Shown one piece after another: positions 5,010-64,000 of a DNA stretch of 64,000 nt. The first letter of the stretch is position 1. Each line of letters starts with the position of its first letter. The DNA lies in the NCBI GenBank assembly GCA_965209085.1, contig OZ242376.1, positions 576,001-640,000 of the forward strand, in the 5' to 3' direction. The DNA is from Nitrosopumilaceae archaeon. GTDB lineage: Archaea; Thermoproteota; Nitrososphaeria; Nitrososphaerales; Nitrosopumilaceae. The translations under genes were made by a program, and so were the position numbers. The notes beneath the pieces are model-generated. The model saw nothing but the letters and a program-made list of their open reading frames with translations. It was not told where the DNA came from and made no database searches.

Positions 5010-5012
5010 AAG

Positions 5013-5569: not shown

Positions 5570-5803
5570 CACCAGATAACTCTAGAACCTGAATCCGCCC
5601 CACAATATTGGACCCATCTTTAGGGTGCAAAAGTGATCTTTACCTGCACCCATAAACTGACTATAGCTCTTCTGCACGAGCACTCCATATGATCCCGATC
5701 TGGCAAAAAACCTCCAAAATCTGCCCCCTCTGATGAGATCCTGAATTTGTAAAGCGGTAATTAGTCACGCATATAAGACTGTCAAATATAGTCATGATGT
5801 AAA

Positions 5804-6947: not shown

Positions 6948-7622
6948 TTGACAAAATTAAAGACGCATCATATTTTAGCAATTGCCCATCTATTATCTGT
7001 TGGGGCAAAATCTGATTTTATAAAAATAGATACAAAATCCCTTGGCCATGCCATAGGCCGCTCACAACAGTCAGCATCCTCATACCTTGTAGAATTGGAA
7101 AAATCCAAATACATTGTACGTAAATTTCATGGCGGTAAAACCTGCATAATGATTACAAACAAAGGCATCCTACAGGTGAGGGAGCTCTCATCTGTACTCT
7201 TAAAGTCACTTGATTCAAAAAAAGCAAATCTTGTGCTTGCCGGTACGATAACCTCAGGTCTTGGCGAGGGTGCATACTATATGTCCCTGAAAGAATACGT
7301 ATTACAGTTTAAAGATAAGATAGGATATACCCCATACCCTGGAACTTTGAACATAAAACTAGAGGATGTATCTGGCTCAAAGATGCTAAATATGCTCACC
7401 ACTAGGGAGCCTGATGCTGTAATTGACGGATTCTCAGATGGCAAGCGGACATACGGCTGGGTAAAATGCTACAAATGCACCATACATGCCAAAAAATGCC
7501 ATCTTGTACGGCTAGAGCGTACGCACCACAAGGAGGGACTAGCTGAGATAATATCTGAAACAAACCTGCGGCGTGTATGCAAACTAGATCATGGCTTGAT
7601 CAAAATAGTATTTGCAGATTAA
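6948..7622 (+). CDS. ribK: CTP-dependent riboflavin kinase with N-terminal HTH (RbkR-type)
   Basis: HTH (LGHAIGRSQQSASSYLVELE), SGLGEGAYY, PYPGTLN, ERTHH, EIIS..LR; TTG start 1 bp after dnaG stop. Confidence 0.93.
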   Translation: MTKLKTHHILAIAHLLSVGAKSDFIKIDTKSLGHAIGRSQQSASSYLVELEKSKYIVRKFHGGKTCIMITNKGILQVRELSSVLLKSLDSKKANLVLAGTITSGLGEGAYYMSLKEYVLQFKDKIGYTPYPGTLNIKLEDVSGSKMLNMLTTREPDAVIDGFSDGKRTYGWVKCYKCTIHAKKCHLVRLERTHHKEGLAEIISETNLRRVCKLDHGLIKIVFAD

Positions 7623-9913: not shown

Positions 9914-9932
9914 GAAGAGGTGCTTAGTATCG

Positions 9933-9940
9933 TTTAATAG
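9933..9940 (+). promoter_or_regulatory. Putative TATA box of the giant gene
   Basis: TTTAATAG 23-30 bp upstream of ATG 9963, about 20 bp downstream of the IS66 right end. Confidence 0.45.
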
Positions 9941-9962
9941 CTGACCTCATACATTAATCATA

Positions 9963-10088
9963 ATGTATGTGAATCTTGTGCTTGTGTTTGTGCTGCTCTC
10001 CCCGTTGCCGTTTGCATCCCCGTTTGCATTAAATGATTCTATACAATATGATGATATTTTCACATATAATGTTCCGCTAGCTTATGCT
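9963..10088 (+). other. Putative signal peptide of giant protein
   Basis: MYVNLVLVFVLLSPLPFASPFALNDSIQYDDIFTYNVPLAYA|ADP: hydrophobic core plus an A-Y-A signal peptidase I-like site at residues 40-42. Confidence 0.6.
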
Positions 10089-13000
10089 GCCGATCCGCTG
10101 ACGGCTACGAGTGTTGCATACTTGTTCATAAACACCAACAATACTTTTGGTGATAACGGCGACATTGCTCCTGACAAATTCGCAAAAGCAGGTGATGAAT
10201 TGTCTGTGCTTATCCAAGTAAACGAGACAATTACTGACACTACAGCAACGATTCTAAATACTGTGTCTACCACTTTCGGTAATACTGGTACGGGTAACGT
10301 CTATAATCCAAAATTAATAGTTTCAAATAATCCCATTGAATCCCACGCCACTTTTACCATTATAATTACAGGCAGCAACGGAACAGTATGGACTATTACT
10401 GAAGCTAATCTAAGCAAGGTTGGTGCTATGCCTGGTGATGCTAGTTATAGTGCCACCAACGTATTTGTCGATACAATACCTCCAACCATAACTTTAATCG
10501 GATCTGCAGACTACGTCATAGTACATAATGATGATACAGATTCTGTTCCAGACGCAACTGCAAATGACGGGAGTCCAAACTATATGGCCAGCAATTACAC
10601 CCTTGTAAAAAACGCCACAGTTGATGTTACAGCACTAGGTTCTGTTTATAATTACACGTACACAGCAGATGATGATGGTGCAGGAAATCCAGGAGCTAGC
10701 ACAACCCGAATCGTCCGGATAGTGGGTGCGGATCCAATATCTGTTAACTCGCTGAGTATTGCAAGCAATTCTGGAAATAATTATGCAAATGCGGGCAAAA
10801 CCGTAACCGTCACTCTTGTAACTGATGGTACAAATCTTAACAGCCTTACTGGAGTCTTGCTTGGAAGATCATTTACAAATATTACAACCGGAGGCTCTGT
10901 CACGTTTACCGGTACAGTCCAGTCCGGCGATGATGGAGATGCCACGTTTTCAATTACTGCTACAAACTCTAGTGGCAACAAAATCACATTAACAAATAGT
11001 GATATCACAGATAGCTCATCTATCATAATAGATACGATAAAACCCGTAATTGCCCTGACTGGAGGCTCTAGTTCTGTATTTCAGGGGGAAACATATCAGG
11101 ATCCGGGAACAACTGTATCAGATGATGGCAATACATCATATGCCGGTTCTGTATCTGCCTCATCAATTGACACCTCTACACTTGGCGCAAAAACCATTAC
11201 CTATACTGGCACTGCGGATGCGGCAGGTAACGAGCCGGATCAACAAACTAGAACAGTTACAGTATTGGAAAAACCTCTGGGTCTGAATTCGCTGGGTCTG
11301 AATTCGCTGGGTCTGAATTCGCTGGGTCTAAATTCGCTGACAATTGAATCAAACAACAATGTAAACACCTCTTTTGCCAAAGACGGAGATGTGATTACAG
11401 TAACGCTTGTTGCAAACGGCACGATTGGTAATGTTACAGGAATAATTGCAGGCAATTCTGTCACATATGCTGTCACCAATAATACTGTATTGGCCACGGT
11501 AACAGTTGATGGAACCTTTGCCGATACTGCCAGCGTCTCTTTTTCGATTACCGTATACAACGAGGATAATTCCACATTTAGAACATTTACAAATACAGAC
11601 CTGACTGGATCAAATATTGCTATAGATACAACTCCACCTAGTATAACATTAAACGGTGCAAACACCATTGCTATCATGAATCAACCTTATGAGGATCCAA
11701 ACGCCACAGCATCTGATGCATCATATGCAACAGGTAGCGTACAAGTATCCGGAGCCGGCAATGTAGATATTACAACAAATGCCATCTATACTCTCACTTA
11801 TACTGCACCTGATGATCCTGCCGGCAATATTGGATCTGTCATAACACGGACTGTTACAGTACAGGATGCGGCGCCAATAAATGTTAACTCGCTGAGTATT
11901 GCAAGTAATTCTGGAAATAATTATGCAAATGCGGGCAAAACTGTAACCGTCACTCTTGTAACGGATGATTCCGATTTGGGCAATATTACTGGAATCTTGC
12001 TTGGAAGAGCGTTGGTAAATGATACAAACGGTGGTTCTGCTGAATTTACTGCCACTGTCGTATCCGGCGATGATGGAGATGCCGCGTTTTCAATTACCGT
12101 GACAAAATCTAGCGGCAACCAAATTTCAATAACAAATGCTGACATCACAGACGGCTCTTTTGTCACAATAGATACGATAAAACCTGTAATTGCCCTGACT
12201 AGAGGCTCTAGTTCTGTATTTCAGGGGGAAACATATCAGGATCCGGGAACAACTGTATCAGATAGTAACAATGCATCATATGCCGGTTCTGTATCTGCCT
12301 CATCAATTGACACCTCTACACTTGGTGCAAAAACCATTACCTATACTGGCACTGCGGATGCGGCAGGTAACGAGCCGGATCAACAAACTAGAACAGTTAC
12401 AGTATTGGAAAAACCTCTGGGTCTGAATTCGCTGGGTCTAAATTCGCTGACAATTGAATCAAACAACAATGTAAACACCTCTTTTGCCAAAGACGTAGAT
12501 GTGATTACAGTAACGCTTGTTGCAAACGGCACGATTGGTAATGTTACAGGAATAATTGCAGGCAATTCTGTCACATATGCTGTCACCAATAATACTGTAT
12601 TGGCCACGGTAACAGTTGATGGAACCTTTGCCGATACTGCCAGCGTCTCTTTTTCGATTACCGTATACAACGAGGATAATTCCACATTTAGAACATTTAC
12701 AAATACAGACCTGACTGGATCAAATATTGCCATAGATACAACTCCACCTAGTATAACATTAAACGGTGCAAACACCATTGCTATCATGAATCAACCTTAT
12801 GAGGATCCAAACGCCACAGCATCTGATGCATCATATGCAACAGGTAGCGTACAAGTATCCGGAGCCGGCAATGTAGATATTACAACAAATGCCATCTATA
12901 CTCTCACTTATACTGCACCTGATGATCCTGCCGGCAATATTGGACCTGTCATAACACGGACTGTTACAGTACAGGATACACCGCCAATAAATGTTAACTC

Positions 13001-16000
13001 GCTGAGTATTGCAAGTAATTCTGGAAATAATTATGCAAATGCGGGCAAAACTGTAACCGTCACTCTTGTAACGGATGATTCCGATTTGGGCAATATTACT
13101 GGAATCTTGCTTGGAAGAGCGTTGGTAAATGATACAAACGGTGGTTCTGCTGAATTTACTGCCACTGTCGTATCCGGCGATGATGGAGATGCCGCGTTTT
13201 CAATTACCGTGACAAAATCTAGCGGCAACCAAATTTCAATAACAAATGCTGACATCACAGACGGCTCTTTTGTCACAATAGATACGATAAAACCTGTAAT
13301 TGCCCTGACTAGAGGCTTTAGTTCTGTATTTCAGGGGGAAACATATCAGGATCCGGGCACAACTGTATCCGATGATGGCAATGCATCATATGCCGGTCCT
13401 GTATCTGCCTCATCAATTGACACCTCTACACTTGGTGCAAAAACCATTACCTATACTGGCACTGCGGATGCGGCAGGTAACGAGCCGGATCAACAAACTA
13501 GAACTGTCACAGTACTGGCAAAATCGCTGTCCCGTACTGTGAATGTCCTTGATGTGCCGCCATTAGATCTTGAATTTCAATTTATATCTCCATCTGGAAA
13601 ATTAACCAGAGGCGTTGATTTTAGCGGCGATTATACCTTTAACTCTATAGACCCGTTTAAAATAAATGACAAAACATATGCTCTTGTAACCAACGGATTT
13701 AATACAAACAATGATTTCTTTATTCTAGATATAACAAATCCTGCATTACCTAGTGTTATATCTGAACAAAATATTGCCGGCTTTATTACACAGGATTCGG
13801 CCATCCTTACAGTAGACGGTCTGCCGTATGGTATCATGTCAACTTTTACTAGCCGCGTTAATATTTACAATCTCAGCAATCCTGCATCACCATCCGTACT
13901 CAATTCTATAGACGATGGATCTTTATATCCGACAGTAAATTCTCCATCTGGCGTTACCACTATAAAAATAGGATCCACACCGTATATCCTGATATCCTCC
14001 CAAGATAATGATAAAGGCGTCCAAATCGTAAACGCTACATTCCCCGACAGTCTAAAACATGTATCAAATATAGTAGATGGTACAACATACCCTGTACTAG
14101 ATGGCGCACAAGGCATTACCACCGTAACAATTGGATCCTCACAGTATGCCCTAGTGGCAGCCAGTGTTGATAATGGTGTACAAATCATAAACATTACAGA
14201 CCCATACAACCCCTCCCCTGCATCTTCGGTTACAGATGGTACATTATATCCGGAACTAGATGGTGCATGGGATGTCACTACGATAGCAATAGATGGCTCA
14301 ACGTATGCCCTAGTGGCAGCCAAAACTGATAATGGCGTCCAAATTATAAACATTACAGACCCATACAACCCCTCCCCTGTATATTCAGTTACTGACGGAA
14401 TAGGCGGATATGACACACTAAATGCCCCATTATCTATAGTCGCAAAACAAATAGGATTATCCACGTATGCCTTTGTGGCATCAAATGGTGATAATGGCAT
14501 CCAAGTTATAGACATTACAGACCCACAAAACCCGTTACCGGCATACAATATTGCAGATGATCCTAGTGGATATACAAATCTGAATGGTACATCTGATATT
14601 GCTCTTGCACGCATAAATGATTTAACATATGTCCTTGTGACATCATTCTATGATGGTCTGCAAATCATAAGTGTGAGATCCTCTGCTGTAATCTCAACTA
14701 CCAGTAATCCTGACCAATCATATGCCAAAGCAGGTGATACACTTACCGTACAATTTACCGTAAATGACACAATCTCATCTAATTCAAGCCAAATACTGGG
14801 ATTAACCCCCACCGTATCCATAAGCGGTGCCGATTTTAGTGCAGCAATAACTGTACCCTCTGTACAAACAGAATCGTATGCAACCTTTGCAATACAGGTT
14901 GTAAACGCTGATGGTGCAACCCTGTCTGTAACAGAGAGTGCCATACCGCAGAACAGTCGCATATTCATCGATACAATCGCACCTGAAATATCCCTCATCG
15001 GCAACTCATCTTTTACGGTAATTTTGAATTCAATTGATCCGTTCATCCCTGGTGCAATCATAACTGATGGGGACCCAAACTATCCGGATACCTTTACTAT
15101 CACAATCAACGGCACTTTGGACACTGGCGTGATAAACTCTACAGTAACGTATACGTATACTGCAGCTACTGATGGGGCAGGAAATGCCGGTTCTAGTGTA
15201 ACACGAACAGTTACAGTGGTTGAGGCTGAACCAATTACAATCAACTCGCTGACTATTGCAAGCTCATCAGGCACCAATTATGCAAATGCAGGCAAAACCA
15301 TAACTGTCACACTTGCCACTGATGGTTCGGATCTTGGCAACTTTACTGGAACACTGCTTGGCAGATCATTTACAAATACTACAAACGGCGGCTCTGCTAC
15401 GTTTACCAGTACAGTCCAGTCCGGCGATGATGGAAATGCCGCGTTTTCAATTACCGTGACAAACTCTAGTGGCAACCAAATTTCAATAACAAATGCAAAC
15501 ATCACAGACAGCTCATCTGTCACAATAGATACGATAAAACCCGTAATTGTTTTGACTGGCGGTGTAGGTTCTGTATTCCAGGGTGAGACATATCAGGATC
15601 CGGGCACAACTGTATCAGATGGTAACAATACATATGCCGGTTCTGTATCTGCCTCATCAATTAACACCTCTACACTTGGTGTAAAAATCATTACCTATAC
15701 TGGCACAGCAGATGCGGCAGGTAACGAGCCGGATCAAATAACTAGAATAGTTACAGTATTTGCAAAACCTCTGGGTATAAATTCGCTGGCAATTGAATCA
15801 AACAACAATGTAAACACCTCTTTTGCCAAAGACGGGGATGTGATTACAGTAACGCTTGTTGCAAACGGCACGATTGATTATGCAATAGGAACAATTGCCA
15901 GCAATTCTGCTACATACACTGTCACCGGCAATAATGCATCAGCTACGGTAACAGTTGATGGAACCTTTACCGATACTGCCAGCGTCACATTTTCGATTAC

Positions 16001-19000
16001 CGTATACAACGAGGATAATTCCACATTTAGAACATTTACAAATACAGACCTGACTGGATCAAATATTGCCATAGATACAACTGCACCTAGTATAACATTA
16101 AACGGTGTAAACAACACCATTGTTAACATGAATCAACCATATGAGGATCCAAACGCCACAGCATCTGATGCATCATATGCAACAGGTAGCGTACAGGTAT
16201 CCGGAGCTGGCAATGTAGATACTACAACAAATGCCATCTATACTCTCACTTATACTGCACCTGATGATCCTGCAGGTAATATTGGACCGGTCATAACACG
16301 GACTGTTACAGTACAGGATGCACCGCCAATAAATGTTAACTCGCTGAGTATTGCAAGCAATTCTGGAAATAATTATGCAAATGCGGGCAAAACTGTAACC
16401 GTCACTCTTGTAACGGATGGTACAAATCTTAACAGCCTTACTGGAGTCTTGCTTGGCAGATCATTTACAAATACTACAACCGGGGGCTCTGCTACGTTTA
16501 CCGGTACAGTCCAGTCCGGCGATGATGGAAATGCCACGTTTTCAATTACTGCTACAAACTCTAGTGGCAACAAAATCACATTAACAAATAGTGATATCAC
16601 AGATAGCTCATCTATCATAATAGATACGATAAAACCCGTAATTAACCTGACTGGAGGCAATGATTTTGTACTCCAGGGTGAGACATATCAGGATCCGGGC
16701 ACAACTGTATCAGATGATGGCAATGCATCATATGCCGGTCCAGTATCTGCCTCATCAATTGACACCTCTACACTTGGCGCAAAAACCATTACCTATACTG
16801 GCACAGCGGATGCGGCAGGTAACGAGCCGAATCAAATAACTAGAATAGTTACAGTATTGGCAAAACCTCTGGGTATAAATTCGCTGACAATTGAATCAAA
16901 TAACAATGTAAACACCTCTTTTGCCAAAGACGGGGATGTGATTACAGTAACGCTTGCTGTAAACGGCACGATTGGTAATGTTACAGGAGTAATTGCAGGC
17001 AATTCTGCTACATACACTGTCACCGGCAATAATGCATCAGCTACGGTAACAGTTGATGGAGCCTTTACTGATACTGCCAGCGTCACATTTTCGATTACCG
17101 TATACAACGAGGATAATTCCACATTTAGAACATTTACAAATACAGACCTGACTGGATCAAATATTGCCATAGATACAACTGCACCTAGTATAACATTAAA
17201 CGGTGCAAACAACACCATTGTTATCATGAATCAACCATATGAGGATCCAAACGCCACAGCATCTGATACATCATATGCAACAGGTAGCGTACAGGTATCC
17301 GGAGCTGGCAATGTAAATACCGCAATAGTTGGCAATTATACCCTCACCTATACTGCACCTGATGATTATGCAGGCAATACAGGACCTGTCATAACACGGA
17401 CTGTTACAGTACAGGATGCACCGCCAATAAATGTTAACTCGCTGAGTATTGCAAGCAATTCTGGAAATAATTATGCAAATGCGGGCAAAACCGTAACCGT
17501 CACTCTTGTAACGGATGGTACAAATCTTAACAGCCTTACTGGAGTCTTGCTTGACAGATCATTTACAAATACTACAACCGGGGGCTCTGCTACGTTTGCC
17601 GGTACAGTCCAGTCCGGCGATGATGGAAATGCCACGTTTTCAATTACCGTGACAAACTCTAGTGGCAGCCAAATTTCAATAACAAATGCAAACATCACAG
17701 ACGGCTCATATGTCACAATAGATACGATAAAACCCGTAATTGCCCTGACTGGAGGCAATGATTCTGTACTCCAGGGTGAGACATATCAGGATCCGGGCAC
17801 AACTGTATCAGATATTAACAATGCATCATATGCAGGTCCCGTATCTGCCACATCAATAAACACCTCTACACTTGGCGCAAAAACCATTACCTATACTGGC
17901 ACAGCAGATGCGGCAGGTAACGAACCGAATCAAATAACTAGAACAGTTACAGTATTGGCAAAACCGCTGGGTCTGAATTCGCTGACAATTGAATCAAACA
18001 ACAATGTAAACACCTCTTTTGCCAAAGACGGGGATGTGATTACAGTAACGCTTGTTGCAAACGGCACGATTGGTAATGCTACAGGGGTAATTGCAGGCAA
18101 TTCTGCTACATACACTGTCACCGGCAATAATGCATCAGATACGGTAACAGTTGATGGAACCTTTGCCGATACTGCCAGCGTCACATTTTCGATTACCGCA
18201 TTCAACGAGGATAATTCCACATTTAGAACATTTACAAATACAAATCTGACCGGATCAAATATTGCCATAGATACAACTGCACCTAGTATAACATTAAACG
18301 GTGCAAACAACACCATTGTTATCATGAATCAACCATATGAGGATCCAAACGCCACAGCATCTGATACATCATATGCAACAGGTAGCGTACAGGTATCCGG
18401 AGCCGGCAATGTAAATACTGCACTAGTTGGCAATTATACCCTCACCTATACTGCACCTGATGATTATGCAGGCAATACAGGACCTGTCATAACACGGACT
18501 GTTACAGTACAGGATGCACCGCCAATAAATGTTAACTCGCTGAGTATTGCAAGCAATTCTGGAAATAATTATGCAAATGCGGGCAAAACCGTAACTGTCA
18601 CTCTTGTAACGGATGGCACAAATCTTAACAGCCTTACTGGAGTCTTGCTTGACAGATCATTTACAAATACTACAACCGGAGGCTCTGCTACGTTTGCCGG
18701 TACAGTCCAGTCCGGCGATGATGGAAATGCCACGTTTTCAATTACCGTGACAAACTCTAGTGGCAGCCAAATTTCAATAACAAATGCAAACATCACAGAC
18801 GGCTCATATGTCACAATAGATACGATAAAACCCGTAATTGCCCTGACTGGAGGCAATGATTCTGTACTCCAGGGTGAGACATATCAGGATCCGGGCACAA
18901 CTGTATCAGATATTAACAATGCATCATATGCAGGTCCCGTATCTGCCACATCAATAAACACCACGATACTTGGCCCACAAAACATTACCTATACTGGCAC

Positions 19001-22000
19001 AGCAGATGCGGCAGGTAACGAGCCGAATCAAATAACTAGAATAGTTACAGTATTTGCAAAACCTCTGGGCATAAATTCGCTGACAATTGAATCAAACAAC
19101 AATGTAAACACCTCTTTTACCAAAGACGGGGATGTGATTACAGTAACGCTTGTTGCAAACGGCACGATTGGTAATGCTACAGGAGTAATTGCAGGAGTAA
19201 TTGCAAGCAATTCTGTTACATATGCTGTCACCAATAATACTGTATTGGCCACGGTAACAGTTGATGGAACCTTTGCCGATACTGCCAGCGTCACATTTTC
19301 GATTACCGTATACAACGAGGATAATTCCACATTTAGAACATTTACAAATGCAAATCTGACTGGATCAAATATTGCCATAGATACAACTGCACCTAGCATA
19401 ACATTAAACGGTGCAAACAACACCTTCGTTGTAACAAATTCCTCCTATACGGATCTAGGTGCCACGGCAACTGATATATCATATGCAACAGGTAGCGTAC
19501 AAGTATCCGGAGTCGGCACTGTAAATATTGCAACATCTGGCAACTATATTCTCACTTATACTGCACCTGATGATCCTGCAGGAAATCCAGGTAACACCAT
19601 ATCCCGTACTGTGATTGTTTCGGATGCGGCGCCGTTGGTGCTTGTAACTAAATTTATCCACTCTCCGAGTGGAACACTAACCCGTGGTACTGATTTTCCA
19701 ACCAATATACCTCCTACTACCATCAATCTGTTTGAAACAAGTGGTAAAACATATGCCTTGTTAGCGGAAGGATCTGGCGGAGCATGGATTATTGCAGACG
19801 TTACAAATCCTGCATCACCTAGTGTAGTATTTAATAATGCCAGTTTCACACCTACATACAAAACATCCATCTTTACAATAGATAATACCCAATATGCCAT
19901 AGCTGCAGGCGGTATCGGCATTACTAGTATACTCGACATCAGCTCACCTGCATCCCCATCTGTTATTACAACACTTGTAAACGGCACAGACTATCCGCGA
20001 CTATACAATGCACAAAGCGTTACAACCGTAACAATAGGTGCCTCAACTTTTGCACTGTTTGCATCTGGCAATCCTACAAACGGCGTCCAAATCATAGACG
20101 TTACAAACCCCCACAGCCCATCACATGTATCCTACCTTACCGATGATACGGATGGTTATTTGGAACTAGGAGGCGCATTTGACATTACCACTGTAATAAT
20201 CGGTGCATCAGTTTATGCCTTGGTGGCATCCAATAATGATGATGGCGTCCAAATCATAGACATTACAGACCCATACAACCCATCAAATACATCAAGTGTA
20301 ACAGATGGAATGGATGGCTATGATAAACTAGATGGTGCATATGGCATCACCACCGTAACTGTAGGATCATCAGTTTATGCCTTGGTGGCATCCTTTAATG
20401 ATGATAGCATCCAAATCATAAACATTACAGACCCATACAACCCATCAAATGCATCAAGCGTAACAGATGGAATAGATGGCTATGATGAACTAGATGGTCC
20501 ATATAGGATCACCACCGTAACTGTAGGATCATCAGTTTATGCTTTGACAGTATCCATTATTGATGATGGCGTCCAAATCATAGACATTACAGACCCATAC
20601 AACCCCCAACCTGCATATTCTCCCACGGATAATACTGGCGGTTATGTAAATCTGGATAACCCAAGAGATGTCATTACTACAACCATAAATGGCACAACAT
20701 ATGCATTTATAGCCTCAAATAATGACGGTCTCCAAATCATAAAACTGGAATCTGCACCACTGACTATATCTAGTAGCAATACAAATCCAACATATGCCAA
20801 AACAGGTGATACACTCACCGTACAATTTACCGTAAATGACACAATCTCATCTAATTCAAGCCAAATACTGGGATTAACCCCCACCGTATCCATAAGCGGT
20901 GCCGATTTTAGTGCAGCAATAACTGTACCCTCTGTACAAACAGAATCGTATGCAACCTTTGCAATACAGGTTTCAAACACTAATGGTGCAACCCTGTCTG
21001 TAACAGAGAGTGGCATATCGCAGAGTAGCAATATATTCATCGATACAATCGCACCTGAAATATCCCTCATCGGCAACTCATCTTTTACGGTAATTTTGAA
21101 TTCAACTGATCCGTTCATCCCTGGTGCAATCATAACTGATGGGGACCCAAACTATCCGGATACCTTTACTATCACAATCAACGGCACTTTGGACACTGGC
21201 GTGATAAACTCTACAGTAACGTATACGTATACTGCAGCTACTGATGGGGCAGGAAATGCCGGTTCTAGTGTAACACGAACAGTTACAGTGGTTGAGGCTG
21301 AACCAATTACAATCAACTCGCTGACTATTGCAAGCTCATCAGGCACCAATTATGCAAATGCAGGCAAAACCATAACTGTCACACTTGCCACTGATGGTTC
21401 GGATCTTGGCAACTTTACTGGAACACTGCTTGGTAGATCATTTACAAATACTACAAACGGCGGCTCTGCTGAATTTACTGCCACTGTCGTATCCGGCGAT
21501 GATGGAGATGCCGCGTTTTCAATTACCGTGACAAACTCTAGTGGCAACCAAATTTCAATAACAAATGCAAACATCACAGACAGCTCATCTGTCACAATAG
21601 ATACGATAAAACCCGTAATTGTTTTGACTGGCGGTGTAGGTTCTGTATTCCAGGGTGAGACATATCAGGATCCGGGCACAACTGTATCAGATGGTAACAA
21701 TACATCATATGCCGGTTCTGTATCTGCCTCATCAATTAACACCTCTACACTTGGTGTAAAAATCATTACCTATACTGGCACAGCAGATGCGGCAGGTAAC
21801 GAGCCGGATCAAATAACTAGAATAGTTACAGTATTGGCAAAACCTCTGGGTATAAATTCGCTGACAATTGAATCAAACAACAATGTAAACACCTCTTTTG
21901 CCAAAGACGGGGATGTGATTACAGTAACGCTTGTTGCAAACGGCACGATTAGTAATGTTACAGGGGTAATTGCAGGCAATTCTGCTACATACACTGTCAC

Positions 22001-49000: not shown

Positions 49001-52000
49001 TGGTAATGCTACAGGAGTAATTGCAGGAGTAATTGCAAGCAATTCTGTTACATATGCTGTCACCAATAATACTGTATTGGCCACGGTAACAGTTGATGGA
49101 ACCTTTGCCGATACTGCCAGCGTCACATTTTCGATTACCGCATTCAACGAGGATAATTCCACATTTAGAACATTTACAAATGCAAATCTGACTGGATCAA
49201 ATATTGCCATAGATACAACTGCACCTAGCATAACATTAAACGGTGCAAACAACACCTTCGTTGTAACAAATTCCTCCTATACGGATCTAGGTGCCACGGC
49301 AACTGATATATCATATGCAACAGGTAGCGTACAAGTATCCGGAGTCGGCACTGTAAATATTGCAACATCTGGCAACTATATTCTCACTTATACTGCACCT
49401 GATGATCCTGCAGGAAATCCAGGTAACACCATATCCCGTACTGTGATTGTTTCGGATGCGGCGCCGTTGGTGCTTGTAACTAAATTTATCCACTCTCCGA
49501 GTGGAACACTAACCCGTGGTACTGATTTTCCAACCAATATACCTCCTACTACCATCAATCTGTTTGAAACAAGTGGTAAAACATATGCCTTGTTAGCGGA
49601 AGGATCTGGCGGAGCATGGATTATTGCAGACGTTACAAATCCTGCATCACCTAGTGTAGTATTTAATAATGCCAGTTTCACACCTACATACAAAACATCC
49701 ATCTTTACAATAGATAATACCCAATATGCCATAGCTGCAGGCGGTATCGGCATTACTAGTATACTCGACATCAGCTCACCTGCATCCCCATCTGTTATTA
49801 CAACACTTGTAAACGGCACAGACTATCCGCGACTATACAATGCACAAAGCGTTACAACCGTAACAATAGGTGCCTCAACTTTTGCACTGTTTGCATCTGG
49901 CAATCCTACAAACGGCGTCCAAATCATAGACGTTACAAACCCCCACAGCCCATCACATGTATCCTACCTTACCGATGATACGGATGGTTATTTGGAACTA
50001 GGAGGCGCATTTGACATTACCACTGTAATAATCGGTGCATCAGTTTATGCCTTGGTGGCATCCAATAATGATGATGGCGCCCAAATCATAGACATTACAG
50101 ACCCATACAACCCATCAAATACATCAAGTGTAACAGATGGAATGGATGGCTATGATAAACTAGATGGTGCATATGGCATCACCACCGTAACTGTAGGATC
50201 ATCAGTTTATGCCTTGGTGGCATCCTTTAATGATGATAGCATCCAAATCATAAACATTACAGACCCATACAACCCATCAAATGCATCAAGCGTAACAGAT
50301 GGAATAGATGGCTATGATGAACTAGATGGTCCATATAGGATCACCACCGTAACTGTAGGATCATCAGTTTATGCTTTGACAGTATCCATTATTGATGATG
50401 GCGTCCAAATCATAGACATTACAGACCCATACAACCCCCAACCTGCATATTCTCCCACGGATAATACTGGCGGTTATGTAAATCTGGATAACCCAAGAGA
50501 TGTCATTACTACAACCATAAATGGCACAACATATGCATTTATAGCCTCAAATAATGACGGTCTCCAAATCATAAAACTGGAATCTGCACCACTGACTATA
50601 TCTAGTAGCAATACAAATCCAACATATGCCAAAACAGGTGATACACTCACCGTACAATTTACCGTAAATGACACAATCTCATCTAATTCAAGCCAAATAC
50701 TGGGATTAACCCCCACCGTATCCATAAGCGGTGCCGATTTTAGTGCAGCAATAACTGTACCCTCTGTACAAACAGAATCGTATGCAACCTTTGCAATACA
50801 GGTTTCAAACACTAATGGTGCAACCCTGTCTGTAACAGAGAGTGGCATATCGCAGAGTAGCAATATATTCATCGATACAATCGCACCTGAAATATCCCTC
50901 ATCGGCAACTCATCTTTTACGGTAATTTTGAATTCAACTGATCCGTTCATCCCTGGTGCGATCATAACTGATGGGGACCCAAACTATCCGGATACCTTTA
51001 CTATCACAATCAACGGCACTTTGGACACTGGCGTGATAAACTCTACAGTAACGTATACGTATACTGCAGCTACTGATGGGGCAGGAAATGCCGGTTCTAG
51101 TGTAACACGAACAGTTACAGTGGTTGAGGCTGAACCAATTACAATCAACTCGCTGACTATTGCAAGCTCATCAGGCACCAATTATGCAAATGCAGGCAAA
51201 ACCATAACTGTCACACTTGCCACTGATGGTTCGGATCTTGGCAACTTTACTGGAACACTGCTTGGTAGATCATTTACAAATACTACAAACGGCGGCTCTG
51301 CTGAATTTACTGCCACTGTCGTATCCGGCGATGATGGAGATGCCGCGTTTTCAATTACCGTGACAAACTCTAGTGGCAACCAAATTTCAATAACAAATGC
51401 AAACATCACAGACAGCTCATCTGTCACAATAGATACGATAAAACCCGTAATTGTTTTGACTGGCGGTGTAGGTTCTGTATTCCAGGGTGAGACATATCAG
51501 GATCCGGGCACAACTGTATCAGATGGTAACAATACATCATATGCCGGTTCTGTATCTGCCTCATCAATTAACACCTCTACACTTGGTGTAAAAATCATTA
51601 CCTATACTGGCACAGCAGATGCGGCAGGTAACGAGCCGGATCAAATAACTAGAATAGTTACAGTATTGGCAAAACCTCTGGGTATAAATTCGCTGACAAT
51701 TGAATCAAACAACAATGTAAACACCTCTTTTGCCAAAGACGGGGATGTGATTACAGTAACGCTTGTTGCAAACGGCACGATTGATTATGCAATAGGAACA
51801 ATTGCCAGCAATTCTGCTACATACACTGTCACCGGCAATAATGCATCAGTTATGGTAACAGTTGATGGAACCTTTACCGATACTGCCAGCGTCACATTTT
51901 CGATTACCGTATACAACGAGGATAATTCCACATTTAGAGTATTTACAAATACAGACCTGACTGGATCAAATATTGCCATAGATACAACTGCACCTAGTAT

Positions 52001-55000
52001 AACATTAAACGGTGCAAACAACACCATTGTTAACATGAATCAACCATATGAGGATCCAAACGCCACAGCATCTGATGCATCATATGCAACAGGTAGCGTA
52101 CAGGTATCCGGAGCCGGCAATGTAGATACTACAACAAATGCCATCTATACTCTCACTTATACTGCACCTGATGATCCTGCAGGTAATATTGGACCGGTCA
52201 TAACACGGACTGTTACAGTACATGATGCACCGCCAATAAATGTTAACTCGCTGAGTATTGCAAGCAATTCTGGAAATAATTATGCAAATGAGAGCAAAAC
52301 TGTAACCGTCACTCTTGTAACGGATGGTACAAATCTTAACAGCCTTACTGGAGTCTTGCTTGGCAGATCATTTACAAATACTACAACCGGGGGCTCTGCT
52401 ACGTTTACCGGTACAGTCCAGTCCGGCGATGACGGAAATGCCACGTTTTCAATTACTGCTACAAACTCTAGTGGCAGCCAAATTTCAATAACAAATGCTG
52501 ACATCACAGATGGCTCATATGTCACAATAGATACGATAAAACCCGTAATTAACCTGACTGGAGGCAATGATTTTGTACTCCAGGGTGAGACATATCAGGA
52601 TCCGGGCACAACTGTATCAGATGATGGCAATGCATCATATGCCGGTCCAGTATCTGCCTCATCAATTGACACCTCTACACTTGGCGCAAAAACCATTACC
52701 TATACTGGCACAGCGGATGCGGCAGGTAACGAGCCGAATCAAATAACTAGAATAGTTACAGTATTGGCAAAACCTTTGGGTATAAATTCGCTGACAATTG
52801 AATCAAATAACAATGTAAACACCTCTTTTGCCAAAGACGGGGATGTGATTACAGTAACGCTTGCTGTAAACGGCACGATTGGTAATGTTACAGGAGTAAT
52901 TGCAGGCAATTCTGCTACATACAATGTCACCGGCAATAATGCATCAGCTACGGTAACAGTTGATGGAGCCTTTACTGATACTGTCAGCGTCACATTTTCG
53001 ATTACCGCATACAACGAGGATAATTCCACATTTAGAACATTTACAAATACAGACCTGACTGGATCAAATATTGCCATAGATACAACTGCACCTAGTATAA
53101 CATTAAACGGTGCAAACAATACTCTAGTTTTCACAAATTCCACATATGTGGATAAAAACGCCACAGCATCTGATGCATCATATGCAACAGGTAGCGTACA
53201 GGTATCCGGAGCCGGCACTGTAAATACTGCAACAGCTGGCAATTATACCCTCACTTATACTGCACCTGTTGATCCTGCAGGTAATATTGGACCTGTCATA
53301 ACACGGACTGTTACAGTACAGAATGCACCGCCAATAAATATCAACTCGCTGAGTATTGCAAGCAATTCTGGAAATAATTATGCAAATGCGGGCAAAACTG
53401 TAACCGTCACTCTTGTAACGGATGGTACAAATCTTAACAGCCTTACTGGAGTCTTGCTTGGCAGATCATTTACAAATACTACAACCGGGGGCTCTGCTAC
53501 GTTTACCGGTACAGTCCAGTCCGGCGATGATGGAAATGCCACGTTTTCAATTACTGCTACAAACTCTAGTGGCAACAAAATCACATTAACAAATAGTGAT
53601 ATCACAGATAGCTCATCTATCATAATAGATACGATAAAACCCGTAATTAACCTGACTGGAGGCAATGATTCTGTACTCCAGGGTGAGACATATCCGGATC
53701 CGGGCACAACTGTATCAGATGATGGCAATGCATCATATGCCGGTCCAGCATCTGCCTCATCAATTGACACCTCTACACTTGGCACAAAAACCATTACCTA
53801 TACTGGCACAGCAGATGCGGCAGGTAACGAGCCGAATCAAATAACTAGAATAGTTACAGTATTTGCAAAACCTCTGGGTCTGAATTCGCTGACAATTGAA
53901 TCAAACAACAATGTAAACACCTCTTTTGCCAAAGACGGGGATGTGATTACAGTAACGCTTGTTGCAAACGGCACGATTGGTAATGTTACAGGGGTAATTG
54001 CAAGCAATTCTGCTACATATGCTGTCACCGATAATACTGTATTGGCCACGGTAACAGTTGATGGAACCTTTACTGATACTGCCAGCGTCACATTTTCGAT
54101 TACCGCATTCAACGAGGATAATTTCACATTTAGAACATTTACAAATACAAATCTGACTGGATCAAATATTGCCATAGATACAACTGCACCTAGTATAACA
54201 TTAAACGGTGCAAACAACACCATTGTTTTCACAAATTCCACATATGTGGATAAAAACGCCACAGCATCTGATGCATCATATGCAACAGGTAGCGTACAAG
54301 TATCCGGAGCCGGCAATGTAAATACTGCAATAGTTGGCAATTATACCCTCACTTATACAGCACCTGATGATCCTGCTGGTAATATTGGACCTGTCATAAC
54401 ACGGACTGTTACAGTACAGGATGCACCACCAATTAAAATTAACGCATTAACCTTTACATCTTCCAACCAAAACACCCAATACGCAAAAGCTGGTGATGCG
54501 CTGACTCTAACGTTGGTGATAAACGATACCATTACAAGCGATACGGTACAAATTCAAAACGGTCCACTCACTACTAATTCTTCGTCAGGTAGTACCCTCG
54601 CAGCAAGTCGTGTAATTCCAACTAGTACAATCGAATCAAACGCCACTTTTACCATTACGGTTACAAATGCCAACGGAGTAACCCTGAATATAACAGAAAA
54701 CGATCTACCCGGCTCCAACATATTTGTCGATACAATACCTCCAAGCATAACACTGGTAGGATCTGCAGACTATACCATAGCCCAAAACGATAATACAGCT
54801 TTGGTTCCAGACGCCAATGTATCTGACGGAGATCCAAACTATTCAGACAGTTACACCCTCACAAAAAACGCTACACTTGATGTTACAGTACTAGGTTCTG
54901 TTTATAATTACACGTATACAGCAAATAATGATTCTGCAGGAAATCCAGGAGATAGTGTGAACCGAATCATCAGGATAGTAGATGAAACAGACCCGACTTT

Positions 55001-58000
55001 GGCAAACCTGACCATATACAGCGACAACTCTGTCACATCCCTTGCAACCATAAACGATATTCTAACCATAACAATTACCGCCAATGAGGCACTCAAGGAG
55101 GCAAACGTTACGCTTCTAAATGCCACCTATATTATGACCATAAATGGCGTCATTGCAAGTGCAAACGTAACGGTAACTGTTGAAGCTCCACAAGGGGAAG
55201 TCGCCTTTAACATCACCGCTTTTGATCTTGCAGGAAACAACTTGACTGTAGACCAAACAGATAGCTCTGTAAACGTCACAATAGACCGCACAGATCCAGT
55301 CCTAGCAACTTTAACCATATCAAGCGACAACCCCACCCCTACACTTGCAACCATAAATGATATTCTAACCATAACAATCACCGCCGATGAGATACTCAAA
55401 AAAGCAGACATTACGATTCTAGGTGAAACTTACACAATGAGCACAAACGGCACCACCATTGCAAGTGCGGATGTAACGGTAAACGCACAAGATCTAGAAG
55501 GGCAGGTCACCTTTAACATCACCGCCTTTGATCTTGCAGAAAATAACTTGACAGCAACCCAAACAAATAGCCCTACAAACGTCACAATAGACCGCACAAA
55601 CCCACAGCTGATGAATCTGACCATATACAGCGACAACACTGTCCCATCCTTTGCAACCTTGAACGATAATCTGACCATAACAATCACCGCCAGTGAGGCA
55701 CTCAAAGAGGCAAACATTACGGTTCTAGGTAATACTTATACAATGAACGTAATTGACACAACTGCAAGTGCAAATGTAACGGTAGATACACAATCTTCGG
55801 AAGGGAATGTCACCTTTGATATCACAGCAGCTGATCTTGCAGGAAACACTCTGAATGCAGATCAGAGAAATCTAACATCTTCAAACGTCACAATAGACCG
55901 CACCGCACCAGGTGATGCAGATCTCAGAGTTAGCAGCAACAATGCAGACCAGACGCTTGCAAAGGCAGGTGATATGATAAACATCACCCTAGTGGCAACA
56001 GAACCAATCATGAACGCAATTTTACAAATATTTGATAATGACAATATCACCATGACTGTAACAAATGATACTGCGTTTGCAAACGTTACTGTCCCGCAAA
56101 ATGCTTCAAACGGACTGATAATGTTCAACATTACAGCAGACGATAGCTCTAGCAATACATTTTCCGTAACACAGAAAAACATCACATCCGGCGTAGTCCG
56201 AGTTGATACAATAGATCCGAAACTGTCAACTTTGAGCATATCCAGCGACAATTCAAACTCTACTTTTGCAACCATAGATGATATTATCGCCATAACAATC
56301 ACCGCCGATGAGATACTCAAAAAAGCAGACATTACGATTCTAGGTGAAACTTACACAATGAGCACAAACGGCACCACCATTGCAAGTGCGGATGTAACGG
56401 TAAACGCACAAGATCCAGAGGGACTGGTCACCTTTAACATCACCGCCTTTGATCTTGCAGAAAATAACTTGACAGCAACCCAAACAAATAGCCCTACAAA
56501 CGTCACAATAGACCGCACAAACCCAGAGCTGACAAACCTGATCATATACAGCAACAACTCTAACCCCATCCTTGCAACCATAAATGATAATCTAACCATA
56601 ACAATTACCGCTGATGAGACACTCAAAAATGCAAACATTACAATTCTAAATGCCATCTATACAATGGCCATAAACGGCACCATGGCAAGTGCAAACGTAA
56701 CGGTAACTGCACAAGATCCGCAAGGATTGGTCTCCTTTAACATCACCGCCTTTGATCTTGCAGAAAACATTCTGACTGCAAACCACACAAATCTAAACTC
56801 TACAAATGTCATAATAGATAGCGCAGCACCTGGGAATGTAACTCTAACAGTTTATAGCAACAATGACAACTCGTCGCTTGCAAAGATAGGTGATGCGATA
56901 AACATAACCATAAATGTAGCAGAGCCAATCATGATGGCAACTTTGCAAATATTTGATGATGATAATATCGTCATGACTGTAACAAATGATACTGCGTCTG
57001 TAAACATCACCGTCCCGCAAAATGCTTCAAACGGACAGATAATGTTCAACATTACAGCAGAAGATAATTCTGGCAACACATTTTCTGTAACACAGACAAA
57101 CATCACATCCGGCGGAGTCCGAATCGATACAATAGATCCGGAACTGGCAAACCTGACCATATACAGCGACAATTCAAACTCTACTCTTGCAACAATAAAC
57201 GATACTTTGAGAATAACAATTACCGCCAATGAGACACTCAAAGGGGCAAACGTTACGGTTCTAGATATGACCTATAATATGACCATAAACGGTGACACTG
57301 CAAGTGCAAACGTAACTGTAACTGCACAAGATCCGCAAGGATTGGTACCATTTACCATCACAGCCTTTGATCTTGCAGAAAACATTCTGACTGCAAACCA
57401 CACAAATCTAAACTCTACAAACGTCACAATAGACCGCACAAACCCAGTTCAGATGAACCTGACCATATACAGCGACAATTCAAACTCTACTCTTGCAACA
57501 ATAAACGATACTCTAACCATAACAATTACCGCTAGTGAGGCACTCAAAGAGGCAAACGTTACGGTTCTTGGTGGCACATATGTGATGACAATAACTGGCA
57601 CCGTGGCAAACGCATCCCTGACTGTAAACTCTACTCATCCGGACGGACAAGTCACCTTTAACATCACAGCCTTTGATCTTGCAGGAAACAGCCTGACTGC
57701 AAACCAGACAAATCTAAACTCCTCAAACGTCACAATTGACAGCACAAATCCACAGCTGACAAACCTAACCATATACAGCAACAATCAGAATATGTCACTT
57801 GCAAAGGCCGGAGATGTGATAAACATTACCCTTTATGCATCAGAGCAAATCAACAATGTGACTCTGTCAATCCTCAATAGCACCATCAACATGAGCATAA
57901 CAAACGATACTGCCACTGCAAACTATACGGTTGCACAAAATGATACAAACGGACCTGTATCATTCAACATTACAGCATATGATAACACGGACAATACGCT

Positions 58001-61000
58001 TACCGTAACACAAAGCGACCTCACATCCGAGAATGTCATAACCGATACAATCAATCCGCAACTGGCAAACCTAACCATATACAGCAGCAACCCTGATGCA
58101 TCACTTGCAACCACAGGCAATACACTAAACATTACAATCACCGCAAACGAGGCACTACAGGGGGCAAACGTCACTGTTTTGAATACAACATATGTGATGA
58201 CCATAAACGGCACCGCGGCAAACGCATCCCTGACTGTAAATGCAAACGATACGGACGGACAAGTCACATTTAACATCACAGCATTTGATCTTGCAGGAAA
58301 CAATCTGACGGCAAACCAAACACAGCTAAACTCATCAAACGTCACAATAGACAAAAGTACACCTGGCGTGAGCAATCTAACCGTATACAGCAGCAATCAG
58401 AATGCATCGCTTGCAAAGGCCGGAGATGTGATAAACATTACCCTGCGTGCATCAGAGCAAATCAACAATGTGACCCTGTCAATCCTCAACAGCACCATTG
58501 CCATGAGCATAACAAACGATACTGCCACTGCAAACTATACGGTTGAACAAAATGACACAAACGGACCTGTATCATTTAGCATTACAGCATATGATAATAC
58601 TGGCAACGAGTTTATCGTAACACAAAGCAGCATTACAACCGGCAGCGTTACAATTGATACAGCAGATCCGCAGTTGCAAACCCTGACCATATACAGCAAC
58701 AACCCCATAACCGATCATGCAAAAACGGGACATTTGCTAAACATTACAATCACCGCAAACGAGGCACTACGGGGGGCAAACGTCACTGTTCTAAATGCCA
58801 CATATGTGATGACCATAAACGGCACCACGGCAAACGCATCCCTGACTGTAAATGCAAACGATACGGACGGACAAGTCACATTTAACATCACAGCATTTGA
58901 TCTTGCAGGAAACAGCCTTGTAACAAACCAGACGCAGCTAAACTCATCAAACGTCACAATAGACAACACAAACCCCGAACTGACAAACCTGACCATATAC
59001 AGCAGCAACCCTGATGCATCACTTGCAACCACAGGCGACACACTAAACATTACAATCACCGCAAACGAGGCACTGCAGGGGGCAAACGTCACTGTTCTAA
59101 ATGCCACATATGTGATGACCATAAACGGCACCACTGCAAGTGTAAACGTAACAGTAGATGCACAATCTTTGGAAGGACCAGTTGACTTTAACATAACAAT
59201 CATTGATCTTGTAGGAAACAATATGACTGTAAATGAAACAAATCTAAACTCATCAAACGTCACAATAGACCGCACAAACCCACAGCTGATGAATCTGACC
59301 ATATACAGCGACAACCCTGTCCCATCATTTGCAACCTTGAACGATAATCTGACCATAACAATTACCGCCAATGAGGCACTCAAAGCGGCAGACATTGCGG
59401 TTCTAGGTACAACCTATACAATGAACATATCTGGCACAACTGCAACTGCGACTGTAACAGTAACTGCACTATCTTCAGAGGGGAATGTCACCTTTGATAT
59501 CACAGCAGCTGATCTTGCAGGAAACACTCTGAGTGCAAATCAGATAAATCTAACATCTTCAAACGTCACAATAGACCACACCGCACCAAGTGGTGTAAAT
59601 CTCATAGTTCACAGCGACAATGCGGACCCGACGCTTGCAAAGGCAGGCGATGTGATAAACATCACCCTAATGGCAGCAGAACCAATCATGAATGCAACTT
59701 TACAAATATTTGATAATGACAATATAACCATGACTGTAACAAATGATACTGCGTCTGTAAACATCACCGTCCCGCAAAATGCTGCAAACGGACAGATAAT
59801 GTTCAACATTACAGCAGAAGATATCTCTGGCAACACATTTTCTGTAACACAGACAAACATCACATCCGGCGGAGTCCAAATCGATACAATAGATCCGAAA
59901 CTGACAAACCTGAGCATATCCAGTGACAATTCAAACTCTACTATTGCAACCATAAACGATACTTTAACCATAACAATTACCGCCGATGAGACACTCAAAG
60001 GGGCAAACGTTACGGTTCTAGGTACAACCTATACAATGAACATAAACAATGACACTGCAAGTGCAAACGTAACGGTAAACTCGACAAATCCTGAAGGAAA
60101 CGTCACATTTAACATCACAGCCTTTGATCTTGCAGGAAACACTCTGAGTGCAAATCAGATAAATCTAACATCTTCAAACGTCACAATAGACCGCACAAAC
60201 CCACAGCTGATGAATCTGACCATATACAGCGACAACCCTGTCCCATCCTTTGCAACCTTGAACGATAATCTGACCATAACAATTACCGCCAATGAGGCAC
60301 TCAAAGCGGCAGACATTGCGGTTCTAGGTACAACCTATACAATGAACATATCTGGCACAACTGCAACTGCGACTGTAACAGTAACTGCACTATCTTCAGA
60401 GGGGAATGTCACCTTTGATATCACAGCAGCTGATCTTGCAGGAAACACTCTGAGTGCAAATCAGATAAATCTAACATCTTCAAACGTCACAATAGACCAC
60501 ACCGCACCAAGTGGTGTAAATCTCATAGTTCACAGCGACAATGCGGACCCGACGCTTGCAAAGGCAGGCGATGTGATAAACATCACCCTAATGGCAGCAG
60601 AACCAATCATGAATGCAACTTTACAAATATTTGATAATGACAATATAACCATGACTGTAACAAATGATACTGCGTCTGCAAACATTCCCGTCCCGCAAAA
60701 TGCTGCAAACGGACAGATAATGTTCAACATTACAGCAGAAGATATCTCTGGCAACACATTTTCTGTAACACAGACAAACATCACATCCGGCGGAGTCCAA
60801 ATCGATACAATAGATCCGAAACTGACAAACCTGAGCATATCCAGTGACAATCCAAACTCTACTCTTGCAACCATAAACGATACTTTAACCATAACAATTA
60901 CCGCCAATGAGACACTCAAAGCGGCAAACATTACGATTCTAGGTGAAACTTATACAATGAACGTAACTGGCACAACTGCAAGTGCAGACGTTACGGTAAA

Positions 61001-64000: not shown

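Follow-up and report, generated by a model that had tools for sequence, protein, structure and literature searches.

What is encoded by a stretch of archaeal DNA in which a single reading frame, once begun, does not end? The window analysed here is 64,000 nucleotides (nt) long and corresponds to bases 576,001–640,000 of the genome of a Nitrosopumilaceae archaeon (GCA_965209085.1, contig OZ242376.1), a single closed contig of 1,693,554 bp, without N and 98.35% complete. An earlier note, made from the letters of the window, had drawn attention to one frame running from an ATG at position 9963 to the window end and had proposed a giant surface protein built of immunoglobulin-like (Ig-like) repeats. 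We find that this frame is a real, intact gene encoding an acidic, cysteine-free protein of a Nitrososphaerota (thaumarchaeal) cell. Its product is probably a surface fibre about 0.7 micrometre long, anchored at the C-terminus and displaying propeller binding modules.

A list of open reading frames (ORFs) in which open ends are allowed gives the frame as 9963..63998 on the + strand, with an ATG start, 18,012 amino acids (aa) and an open 3' end, exactly as the earlier note had it. The nearest upstream in-frame stop is a TGA at 9942–9944, so that the ATG at 9963 is the first possible start. No in-frame stop occurs inside the window. The gene continues for 5,614 nt past it (genome 640,001–645,614; locus L001 9639–15252), and the stop is a TAA at genome position 645,612–645,614, equivalent to 69,612–69,614 in window numbering, 5.6 kb beyond the window end. 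The whole gene spans 59.65 kb and the full protein has 19,883 residues. Since 19,883 consecutive sense codons are impossible by chance at 41% GC, the frame must be coding. The window holds only four ORFs of at least 300 aa, and no other ORF of this size overlaps the giant frame on either strand. The gene had been called unannotated, which is probably an artefact of the ORF track then used; its absence from that track would be accounted for most simply if such lists leave out any frame that is still open at the end of the sequence, and in the public closed genome it is probably annotated already. The features at the start of the gene are as follows.

9963..64000, + strand: window part of the giant ORF, aa 1–18,012 of 19,883, with no stop and no N
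9933..9939, + strand: TATA-like box TTTAATA, 24–30 nt 5' of the ATG, a candidate promoter by sequence reading and general archaeal promoter geometry
9963..10031, + strand: signal-peptide-like hydrophobic N-terminus, aa 1–23, from a Kyte–Doolittle scan and the sequence

The computed mass of the protein is 2.05 MDa and its pI 4.05, with 1,696 acidic and 498 basic residues and not one cysteine in 19,883. Threonine (16.7%), asparagine (10.6%), serine (9.8%), alanine (9.1%), isoleucine (8.7%) and valine (8.0%) dominate, in keeping with the Thr/Asn/Ser/Val/Ile-rich repeats noticed earlier. The Kyte–Doolittle scan reveals just two hydrophobic segments in the entire chain, at aa 5–23 (mean 2.16) and aa 19,850–19,878. 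The GC fraction of the gene (0.423) is close to that of the genome (0.412), which rules out a foreign origin by composition.

Hidden Markov models (HMMs) trained on the giant protein itself identify 107 copies of a domain A of about 96 aa and 66 copies of a domain B of about 80 aa, or 173 Ig-like domains in the whole protein. The window contains 159 of these (94 A and 65 B), against an earlier estimate of about 160. Left uncovered by the two models are the N-terminal 63 aa, the C-terminal 503 aa and eight internal gaps of 378–389 aa. With SP for the signal-like start and P for a gap block, the order is SP-(AB)6-P-(AB)9-P-(AB)9-P-(AB)7-P-(AB)5-P-(AB)9-P-(AB)7-P-(AB)5-P-(AB)8, followed by 42 A domains, which have a period of about 102 aa, and one final B.

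10152..54980, + strand: 65 A–B pairs with interspersed propellers (self-trained HMMs, PF16403, AlphaFold2 model, Foldseek)
55005..63998, + strand: run of 42 consecutive A domains, aa 15,015–19,297, continuing beyond the window (self-trained HMMs)
Past the window, aa 19,298–19,380: last PF16403 (B) domain (self-trained HMM)

Domain B belongs to the Pfam family PF16403 (Bact_surface_Ig-like), which it matches with 355 bits (cut-off 27, E = 1.9e-108), and a Pfam search finds 14 stretches of this family within aa 1–4000. Domain A matched no Pfam or NCBIfam family, and its profile found no relative by sequence among solved structures; it is a new Ig-like family without a Pfam model. Its copies retain a conserved hydrophobic beta-sandwich pattern in alignment at 23–33% identity. 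AlphaFold2 was applied to one A-B-A-B unit (378 aa, with an alignment of 36 of the protein's own copies). The model has a mean predicted local distance difference test score (pLDDT) of 80.2 and comprises four all-beta domains joined by short linkers; its predicted TM-score (pTM) of 0.44 is as expected from a beads-on-a-string arrangement. Foldseek returned 377 PDB matches to this model at E <= 0.001, all of them multi-Ig proteins, including the S-layer proteins SbsB and Sap, cadherins, titin, complement MG domains, the RTX adhesins 6xi1 and 4p99, SiiE (2yn5) and the grappling-hook protein GhpA. The TM-scores of the unit are low (0.17–0.27) because the arrangement of the domains differs.

The linker from B to A carries an in-frame micro-repeat of 15 nt encoding LGLNS (window 11277–11336 and 12417–12446). 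The first unit has four copies of it, the second has two and other units have one; it looks like the result of slippage. The four-copy linker is the low-confidence part of the unit model (residues 180–194).

Selection can be read from the repeats themselves. The A-B-A-B unit of 366 aa occurs 28 times at 76–100% identity, and the ratio of nonsynonymous to synonymous substitution rates (dN/dS) between units has a median of 0.65 and a range of 0.38–0.91 over 37 pairs (40 sampled, three dropped for dS <= 0.02). For the domains of the C-terminal A run, 60 pairs were sampled and 16 removed by the dS limits; the remaining 44 have a median of 0.40. The long open frame, dN/dS below 1 between repeats and the conserved beta-sandwich hydrophobic pattern together indicate that the gene is under selection.

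The eight gap blocks are, by predicted structure, seven-bladed beta-propellers resembling LVIVD and EPTP domains. They fall into three sequence types, alpha with one copy, beta with five copies having identical codons and gamma with two identical copies, and are spaced every 5–9 A–B pairs.

13518..14684, + strand: propeller 1, type alpha, unique, aa 1186–1574 (self-trained HMM gap, codon comparison, sub-cut-off LVIVD match)
19623..20756, + strand: propeller 2, type beta, aa 3221–3598, the modelled copy (AlphaFold2, LGI1 match)
25698..26831, + strand: propeller 3, type beta, aa 5246–5623 (codon-identical to propeller 2, dS 0)
30663..31802, + strand: propeller 4, type gamma, aa 6901–7280 (77% aa identity to type beta)
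34545..35678, + strand: propeller 5, type beta, aa 8195–8572 (codon comparison)
40608..41741, + strand: propeller 6, type beta, aa 10216–10593 (codon comparison)
45573..46712, + strand: propeller 7, type gamma, aa 11871–12250 (identical to propeller 4)
49455..50588, + strand: propeller 8, type beta, aa 13165–13542 (dN 0.001 against the other beta copies)

The commonest type, beta, was modelled with AlphaFold2 on the copy in propeller 2 and an alignment of 19 sequences. The model (pLDDT 91.0, pTM 0.90) has 28 strands forming seven four-stranded blades. Among solved structures the model best matches the EPTP propeller of human LGI1 (5y2z_B; E = 2.2e-16, TM-scores of 0.72 for the query, TMq, and 0.84 for the target, TMt, root-mean-square deviation 3.3). 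The LGI1 domain is likewise seven-bladed and extracellular, but the sequence identity is 13–14%. There are at least 500 structural matches at E <= 0.001, with WD40 propellers ranking after LGI1. A search of the propeller sequence against solved structures gave nothing meaningful. All eight of the short propeller homologues score above the cut-off of Pfam LVIVD (PF08309), at 23.7–51.4 bits, and the propeller also matches the NCBIfam choice-of-anchor B (31.7 bits) and choice-of-anchor I families below their cut-offs. The family is large: 3,369 representative relatives pass E <= 0.001, 658 still pass at E <= 1e-30, and many run to thousands of residues.

Comparison of a beta with a gamma propeller (window 19623–20756 and 30663–31802) gives 26.1 synonymous and 113.9 nonsynonymous changes, with dN/dS 1.49; the adjoining 366 aa in the same comparison show 34 and 47. 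In the alignment the changes sit between the conserved strand motifs. The sequences offer a hint, but only a hint, that the propeller surfaces diversify, possibly under diversifying selection.

The protein ends in a compact series of elements, all of them past the window.

aa 19,381–19,594 (locus L001:13741–14382): region of 214 aa separating the final Ig-like domain from the Pro/Thr linker
aa 19,595–19,616: Pro/Thr linker of 22 aa
aa 19,619–19,637: Gly-rich linker of 19 residues
aa 19,640–19,850 (with the tail to 19,883, locus L001:14518–15249): two-domain PEFG module
aa 19,853–19,856: PEFG motif, then a transmembrane helix to 19,878, the basic tail SRLVRNPIE and TAA

The first of these regions matched no family and no solved relative, and an Atlas search with aa 19,381–19,625 gave scores all at 0.82 or below and no lead. 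The C-terminal anchor that the earlier note had asked to be looked for was found. The PEFG-CTERM family TIGR04296 of NCBIfam, with a cut-off of 25, scores 28.9 bits on the last 600 aa and 33.3 bits in a whole-genome scan. Six such signals lie above the cut-off in this genome, and the other five end ORFs of 270–326 aa. The genome also encodes a thaumarchaeosortase (TIGR04297, 461.3 bits against a cut-off of 250) in an ORF of 315 aa (L003:1291–2238), which carries the TIGR04178 exo_archaeo signature (44.9 bits). These, with the Nitrososphaerota neighbours described next, agree with the proposal of an exported archaeal surface protein.

The Atlas neighbours of the PEFG module, at 0.96–0.97, are Nitrososphaerota clusters named 'PEFG-CTERM sorting domain'. 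The last 230 aa or so match small ORFs in 150 of the 151 genomes of the family at 29–55% identity, a tally that includes the genome itself (G000) and three unpublished genomes. The longest other open frame with the C-terminal module has 1,036 aa among the roughly 150 of 906 matches listed. The final 244 aa are collinear with the whole mature part of 16 PEFG-CTERM proteins (about 270–300 aa, 26–37% identity), and IEIIGT..PEFG is invariant in the alignment of the giant with these 16. The closest paralogue of the module in the same genome is 48% identical. By its sequence, the giant has the appearance of an ordinary small PEFG-anchored protein of the cell surface in which the signal peptide has been replaced by 19,640 aa of repeats. 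A sequence search of the last 380 aa against solved structures matched only Gly-Ser linkers. PEFG-CTERM proteins have been seen in Nitrosopumilus proteomes (PMC6593220).

The small PEFG-CTERM genes comprise a cluster of four (G000:C1 1419616–1423793) and a single gene at 123252–124115; the first gene of the cluster is the 48% paralogue. In one neighbouring Atlas cluster of the PEFG module (score 0.93) an MG2 macroglobulin domain is present in 74% of members. As a lead only, this raises the possibility that the module, widespread among thaumarchaea, begins with an MG2-like domain.

How might such a protein work? The TTTAATA box lies at a distance from the ATG that would suit a leaderless or short-leader archaeal transcript, and export is predicted to be via Sec. 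By analogy with the substrates of archaeosortase A, the thaumarchaeosortase would cut the C-terminal signal and the chain would be held at the membrane. The Pro/Thr and Gly linkers with the two-domain module could then form a membrane-proximal stalk or base passing through the S-layer, from which the Ig-like chain would project with its N-terminus outward. An Ig-like domain is about 4 nm long, and 173 of them would make a fibre of about 0.7 micrometre, roughly as long as a Nitrosopumilus-type cell. The eight propellers, placed along the inner three quarters of the fibre, would provide multivalent putative binding sites for particles, polymers or other cells. Adhesion would be the role of such a fibre, and attachment to these targets seems to us the most likely one.

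The main functional rival is a protective or conditioning coat in the manner of halomucin, a long, acidic and possibly glycosylated polymer brush that is not an adhesin. A coat of this kind would gather cations such as ammonium around the cell, or protect the S-layer against viruses and grazers, and its propellers would associate with one another and not with foreign ligands. The pI of 4.05 and the excess of acidic over basic residues fit a coat, as do 874 N-X-S/T sequons compared with 540 +/- 19 in 200 shuffled sequences, and halomucin shows that an archaeon can secrete a giant coat protein (PMC4378361). Cell-surface genes of ammonia-oxidising archaea cluster in variable genomic islands (PMC4010524), and nine ORFs of at least 2,000 aa occupy 11.3% of this genome. 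Against this, a stalk with discrete globular modules and a single anchor is the architecture of a fibrillar adhesin, the top structural match of the propeller is a protein–protein recognition domain (LGI1 EPTP) and mucin-like low-complexity Ser/Thr/Pro tracts are absent except for the one 22 aa linker. We give the coat a minor, though still serious, chance. Heavy N-glycosylation, at first inferred, was lowered to a possibility in the light of a glycoproteomic study that detected no N-glycosylation on a Nitrosopumilus S-layer protein (PMC12153357).

Several observations weigh against a C-terminally anchored, propeller-bearing fibre of the length proposed. The start had been called signal-peptide-like, and this holds for its hydrophobic stretch, but the basic n-region of a textbook signal peptide is lacking. 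The giant's own propeller block reaches 19.8 bits against LVIVD, 0.4 bits under the cut-off of 20.2. An excess of sequons need not imply glycosylation. The dN/dS above 1 between propeller types is a contrast from a single independent comparison (one-sided binomial p = 0.0495). Lipid anchoring was shown for archaeosortase A substrates of haloarchaea and has been demonstrated for that enzyme only, not for thaumarchaeosortase (PMC7157517); the literature on PEFG-CTERM and thaumarchaeosortase, in the parts available, contained no demonstration of PEFG-CTERM processing. Finally, and as the main caveat, the exact length of the protein hangs on the copy number of a 14.9-kb internal repeat (99.3% identity over 22 kb, 6,113 nt exact).

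This repeat is the upper level of a hierarchy, with the following features.

17436..54443, + strand: higher-order tandem repeat [(AB)9-P-(AB)7-P-(AB)5-P] in about 2.5 copies (self-megablast)
29057..35169, + strand: longest exact internal repeat, 6,113 nt, first copy
43967..50079, + strand: the same 6,113 nt, second copy, 14,910 nt downstream

The period of the higher-order repeat is 14,922 or 14,910 nt (about 4,970 aa), and a lower-order period of 6,069 nt is seen at 96–98% identity. By self-megablast, gene nucleotides 7474–29571 and 22396–44481 are 99.3% identical over 22,099 nt, with 138 mismatches and three gaps. About 13.5 kb within these segments carries only nine codon differences, the remainder being concentrated in one third of the unit. 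The second-longest exact internal repeat is 3,196 nt. Both higher-order periods are multiples of three, so a miscount of copies in the assembly would not interrupt the frame, whose openness proves the integrity of the sequence and not its length.

The gene could thus be real and its length inflated or deflated by assembly, the true protein having perhaps about 14,900 or 9,900 aa. The near-identity of the 22.1-kb segments and the insensitivity of the frame to copy number allow this. In four public sequencing runs containing the region the contigs are short and the repeats fall into pieces of less than 1 kb, with no listed piece spanning the stretch. The unique start of the gene (window 9001–9510 and 9807–10721) is letter-identical in two of these runs, X1 and X2, one of which may be the source sample. 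Yet the genome is one closed contig without N, and the repeat copies carry private differences clustered in one third of the unit, a pattern that a simple assembler duplication would not produce. We regard a materially wrong length as improbable; in that case the protein would have about 10,000–15,000 aa, and at the smallest alternative would still be a giant.

A giant Ig-repeat surface protein is of a known kind, and what is unusual here is the host and the size. Of the features by which fibrillar adhesins are recognized, a tandem Ig-like stalk (173 domains) and an anchor, PEFG-CTERM, are present, and the part of ligand binding may be taken by the eight propellers, which by predicted structure resemble an extracellular binding propeller. 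We infer that the giant works like a fibrillar adhesin and that its logic is closest to that of the sortase-anchored Gram-positive giants, with an enzyme of the archaeosortase family. Those giants, of the Ebh, Bap and SasG type, combine a signal peptide, a long repeat stalk, a C-terminal tripartite signal and a dedicated transpeptidase. The thaumarchaeal protein has a signal-like start, an Ig-like stalk and a motif followed by a transmembrane helix and a basic tail; it differs in its PEFG motif and in its enzyme, which belongs to the exosortase/archaeosortase family (TIGR04297) and is unrelated to sortase A. With the PGF-CTERM substrates of archaeosortase A in haloarchaea it shares the class of C-terminal signal and the enzyme family (TIGR04178), although motif and sortase clade are different. 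The small Nitrososphaerota PEFG-CTERM proteins align with its last 244 aa over their full mature length, but have a signal peptide where the giant has its 19,640 aa of repeats.

The earlier note had likened the design to SiiE, Bap and LapA. The Ig-repeat design stands, with PF16403, an all-beta model and SiiE (2yn5), MpIBP (4p99) and the Aeromonas RTX adhesin (6xi1) among the Foldseek matches of the unit model. Like the RTX/BIg adhesins SiiE, LapA and MpIBP, the giant has a very long acidic tandem chain of Ig-like domains holding binding modules off the cell. It is not of their type, however: the host is archaeal, the anchor is C-terminal and the N-terminus distal (the reverse of RTX adhesins), and the putative binding modules are spread along the fibre and not gathered at one end. 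A search of aa 1–4000 and of the last 5,000 aa at E <= 0.01 brought up neither RTX (HemolysinCabind) repeats nor a type-1 secretion end. An RTX, type-1-secreted adhesin such as SiiE or LapA is ruled out, since no RTX family was found in these two regions and the C-terminus is a transmembrane anchor.

As to size, halomucin of Haloquadratum walsbyi (9,159 aa, secreted) was called the largest archaeal protein when it was published (PMC4378361). It too is a giant secreted envelope protein of an archaeon but, going by description and size alone, it is mucin-like rather than a chain of Ig-like domains and propellers and less than half as large. A survey of proteins above 5,000 aa describes 'relatively few' from archaea and reports propeller-type SGL and Lactonase domains as exclusive to thaumarchaeal giant proteins (PMC11573180). 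A preprint mentions few archaeal proteins above 10,000 aa, mostly of Asgard archaea (bioRxiv 2023.11.21.568195). LVIVD has been described in archaeal and bacterial surface proteins (PMC2447325). The available parts of the literature on Nitrosopumilus giant proteins, PEFG-CTERM and thaumarchaeosortase held no description of such a protein. With 19,883 aa as assembled, more than twice the size of halomucin, it is plausibly among the largest archaeal proteins, as claimed earlier, but this is unproven: the available parts of the two surveys give no maximum, and longer archaeal proteins may be listed in them.

The gene is not the only giant in its genome. Nine stop-to-stop frames have at least 2,000 codons (19,889, 11,305, 8,617, 6,573, 5,287, 5,130, 2,870, 2,337 and 2,063) and together take up 192 kb, or 11.3% of 1.69 Mb, to which the present gene alone contributes 3.5%. 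The other eight lie on G000:C1.

1128855–1162769, - strand: giant frame
697353–723203, + strand: giant frame
1489810–1509528, - strand: giant frame
995654–1011514, + strand: giant frame
1020057–1035446, - strand: giant frame
1194578–1203187, - strand: giant frame
771407–778417, - strand: giant frame
1656720–1662908, - strand: giant frame

The A-B-A-B unit is present in five of these eight at 46–87% identity, and our gene shares DNA stretches of up to 7.2 kb with the 6,573-codon paralogue at 88% identity. Only the giant described here has a PEFG-CTERM ending; the others share two different C-terminal sequences without a transmembrane helix. Among 41 related genomes at E <= 1e-25 the unit was detected in this genome and one other of the same genus, there in ORFs of 1,108–3,448 aa at no more than 57% identity; the 39 genomes belonging to other genera gave no match. 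In a large protein collection, three of 454 scored candidates are relatives of 5,500–17,500 aa, namely the 6,572 aa paralogue and proteins of 5,716 aa (53% identity) and 5,564 aa (29%).

The 14.9-kb internal repeats and the near-identical units common to the five paralogous giant genes would allow the length and the propeller content to change by recombination, and the gene is a clear case of growth by nested tandem duplication and exchange among paralogues. One might go further and see in it the largest archaeal protein described, a cell-length sortase-anchored tether by which an ammonia oxidiser with a small genome clings to particles or partner cells, whose reach and propeller set are re-dealt by recombination and which forms, with its paralogues, a variable attachment organelle. 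This we consider rather unlikely; if true, 11% of the genome is spent on the organelle. The common view of ammonia-oxidising archaea from the sea and from sediments is one of streamlined, free-living oligotrophs. One gene amounting to 3.5% and nine to 11.3% of a 1.69-Mb genome indicate a strong and costly investment in the cell surface, which suggests that attachment, aggregation or defence of the surface matters greatly in the ecology of the lineage. The giant is in addition a natural, very large substrate with which to probe the thaumarchaeosortase/PEFG-CTERM system.

The position of the gene bears on its history. It is bracketed by a riboflavin-kinase gene (window 6948–7622) and a methylase/DUF357 gene (L002:975–2024, genome 645,975–647,024). 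These are 62.4 kb apart here and 0.7–4.0 kb apart in four of four relatives compared (G019, G001, G003 and G013), so that the giant gene is an insertion at a site that is otherwise conserved. On this comparison the insertion or expansion is specific to the lineage, and its composition is native. Immediately upstream is the remnant of an insertion sequence (IS).

8651..9886, + strand: remnant of a broken IS66-family transposase, with 12 stops in translation, separated by 77 nt from the giant's ATG

PF03050 scores 33.1 bits for 9081–9386 of this remnant, and a C-terminal transposase-like frame is still readable. A broken transposase 77 nt away, and a gene that is an insertion relative to all four genomes compared, might suggest a silent or decaying relic of repeat expansion beside an IS, its frame now unexpressed. 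A stop-free frame of 59.65 kb at 41% GC cannot, however, persist without selection; the stalk domains have dN/dS below 1, the export and anchor signals are intact and the TATA-like box is in place. A relic is very improbable.

The flanks hold riboflavin kinase, cytidylyltransferase and the IS remnants upstream and, downstream, the methylase and an opposite-strand biosynthesis cluster. The flanking genes are of the housekeeping kind and unrelated to the giant, and a functional link to the neighbours is rejected. The cluster (L002:2021–8859, - strand) is of the LysW type of amino-acid biosynthesis, with genes for an M20 peptidase, a RimK/LysX ATP-grasp protein, a homocitrate-synthase-like protein, a class-III aminotransferase, an amino-acid kinase and a semialdehyde dehydrogenase, and is followed by a DNA methylase gene. 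Two more transposase remnants, DDE_Tnp_4 (70.8 bits) and DDE_3 (50.7 bits), occur upstream at window 2635–3138 and 4209–4703. The flank with these remnants is compositionally odd, with a GC fraction of 0.35–0.38 over window 1–6000 compared with 0.412 for the genome; the giant gene is not.

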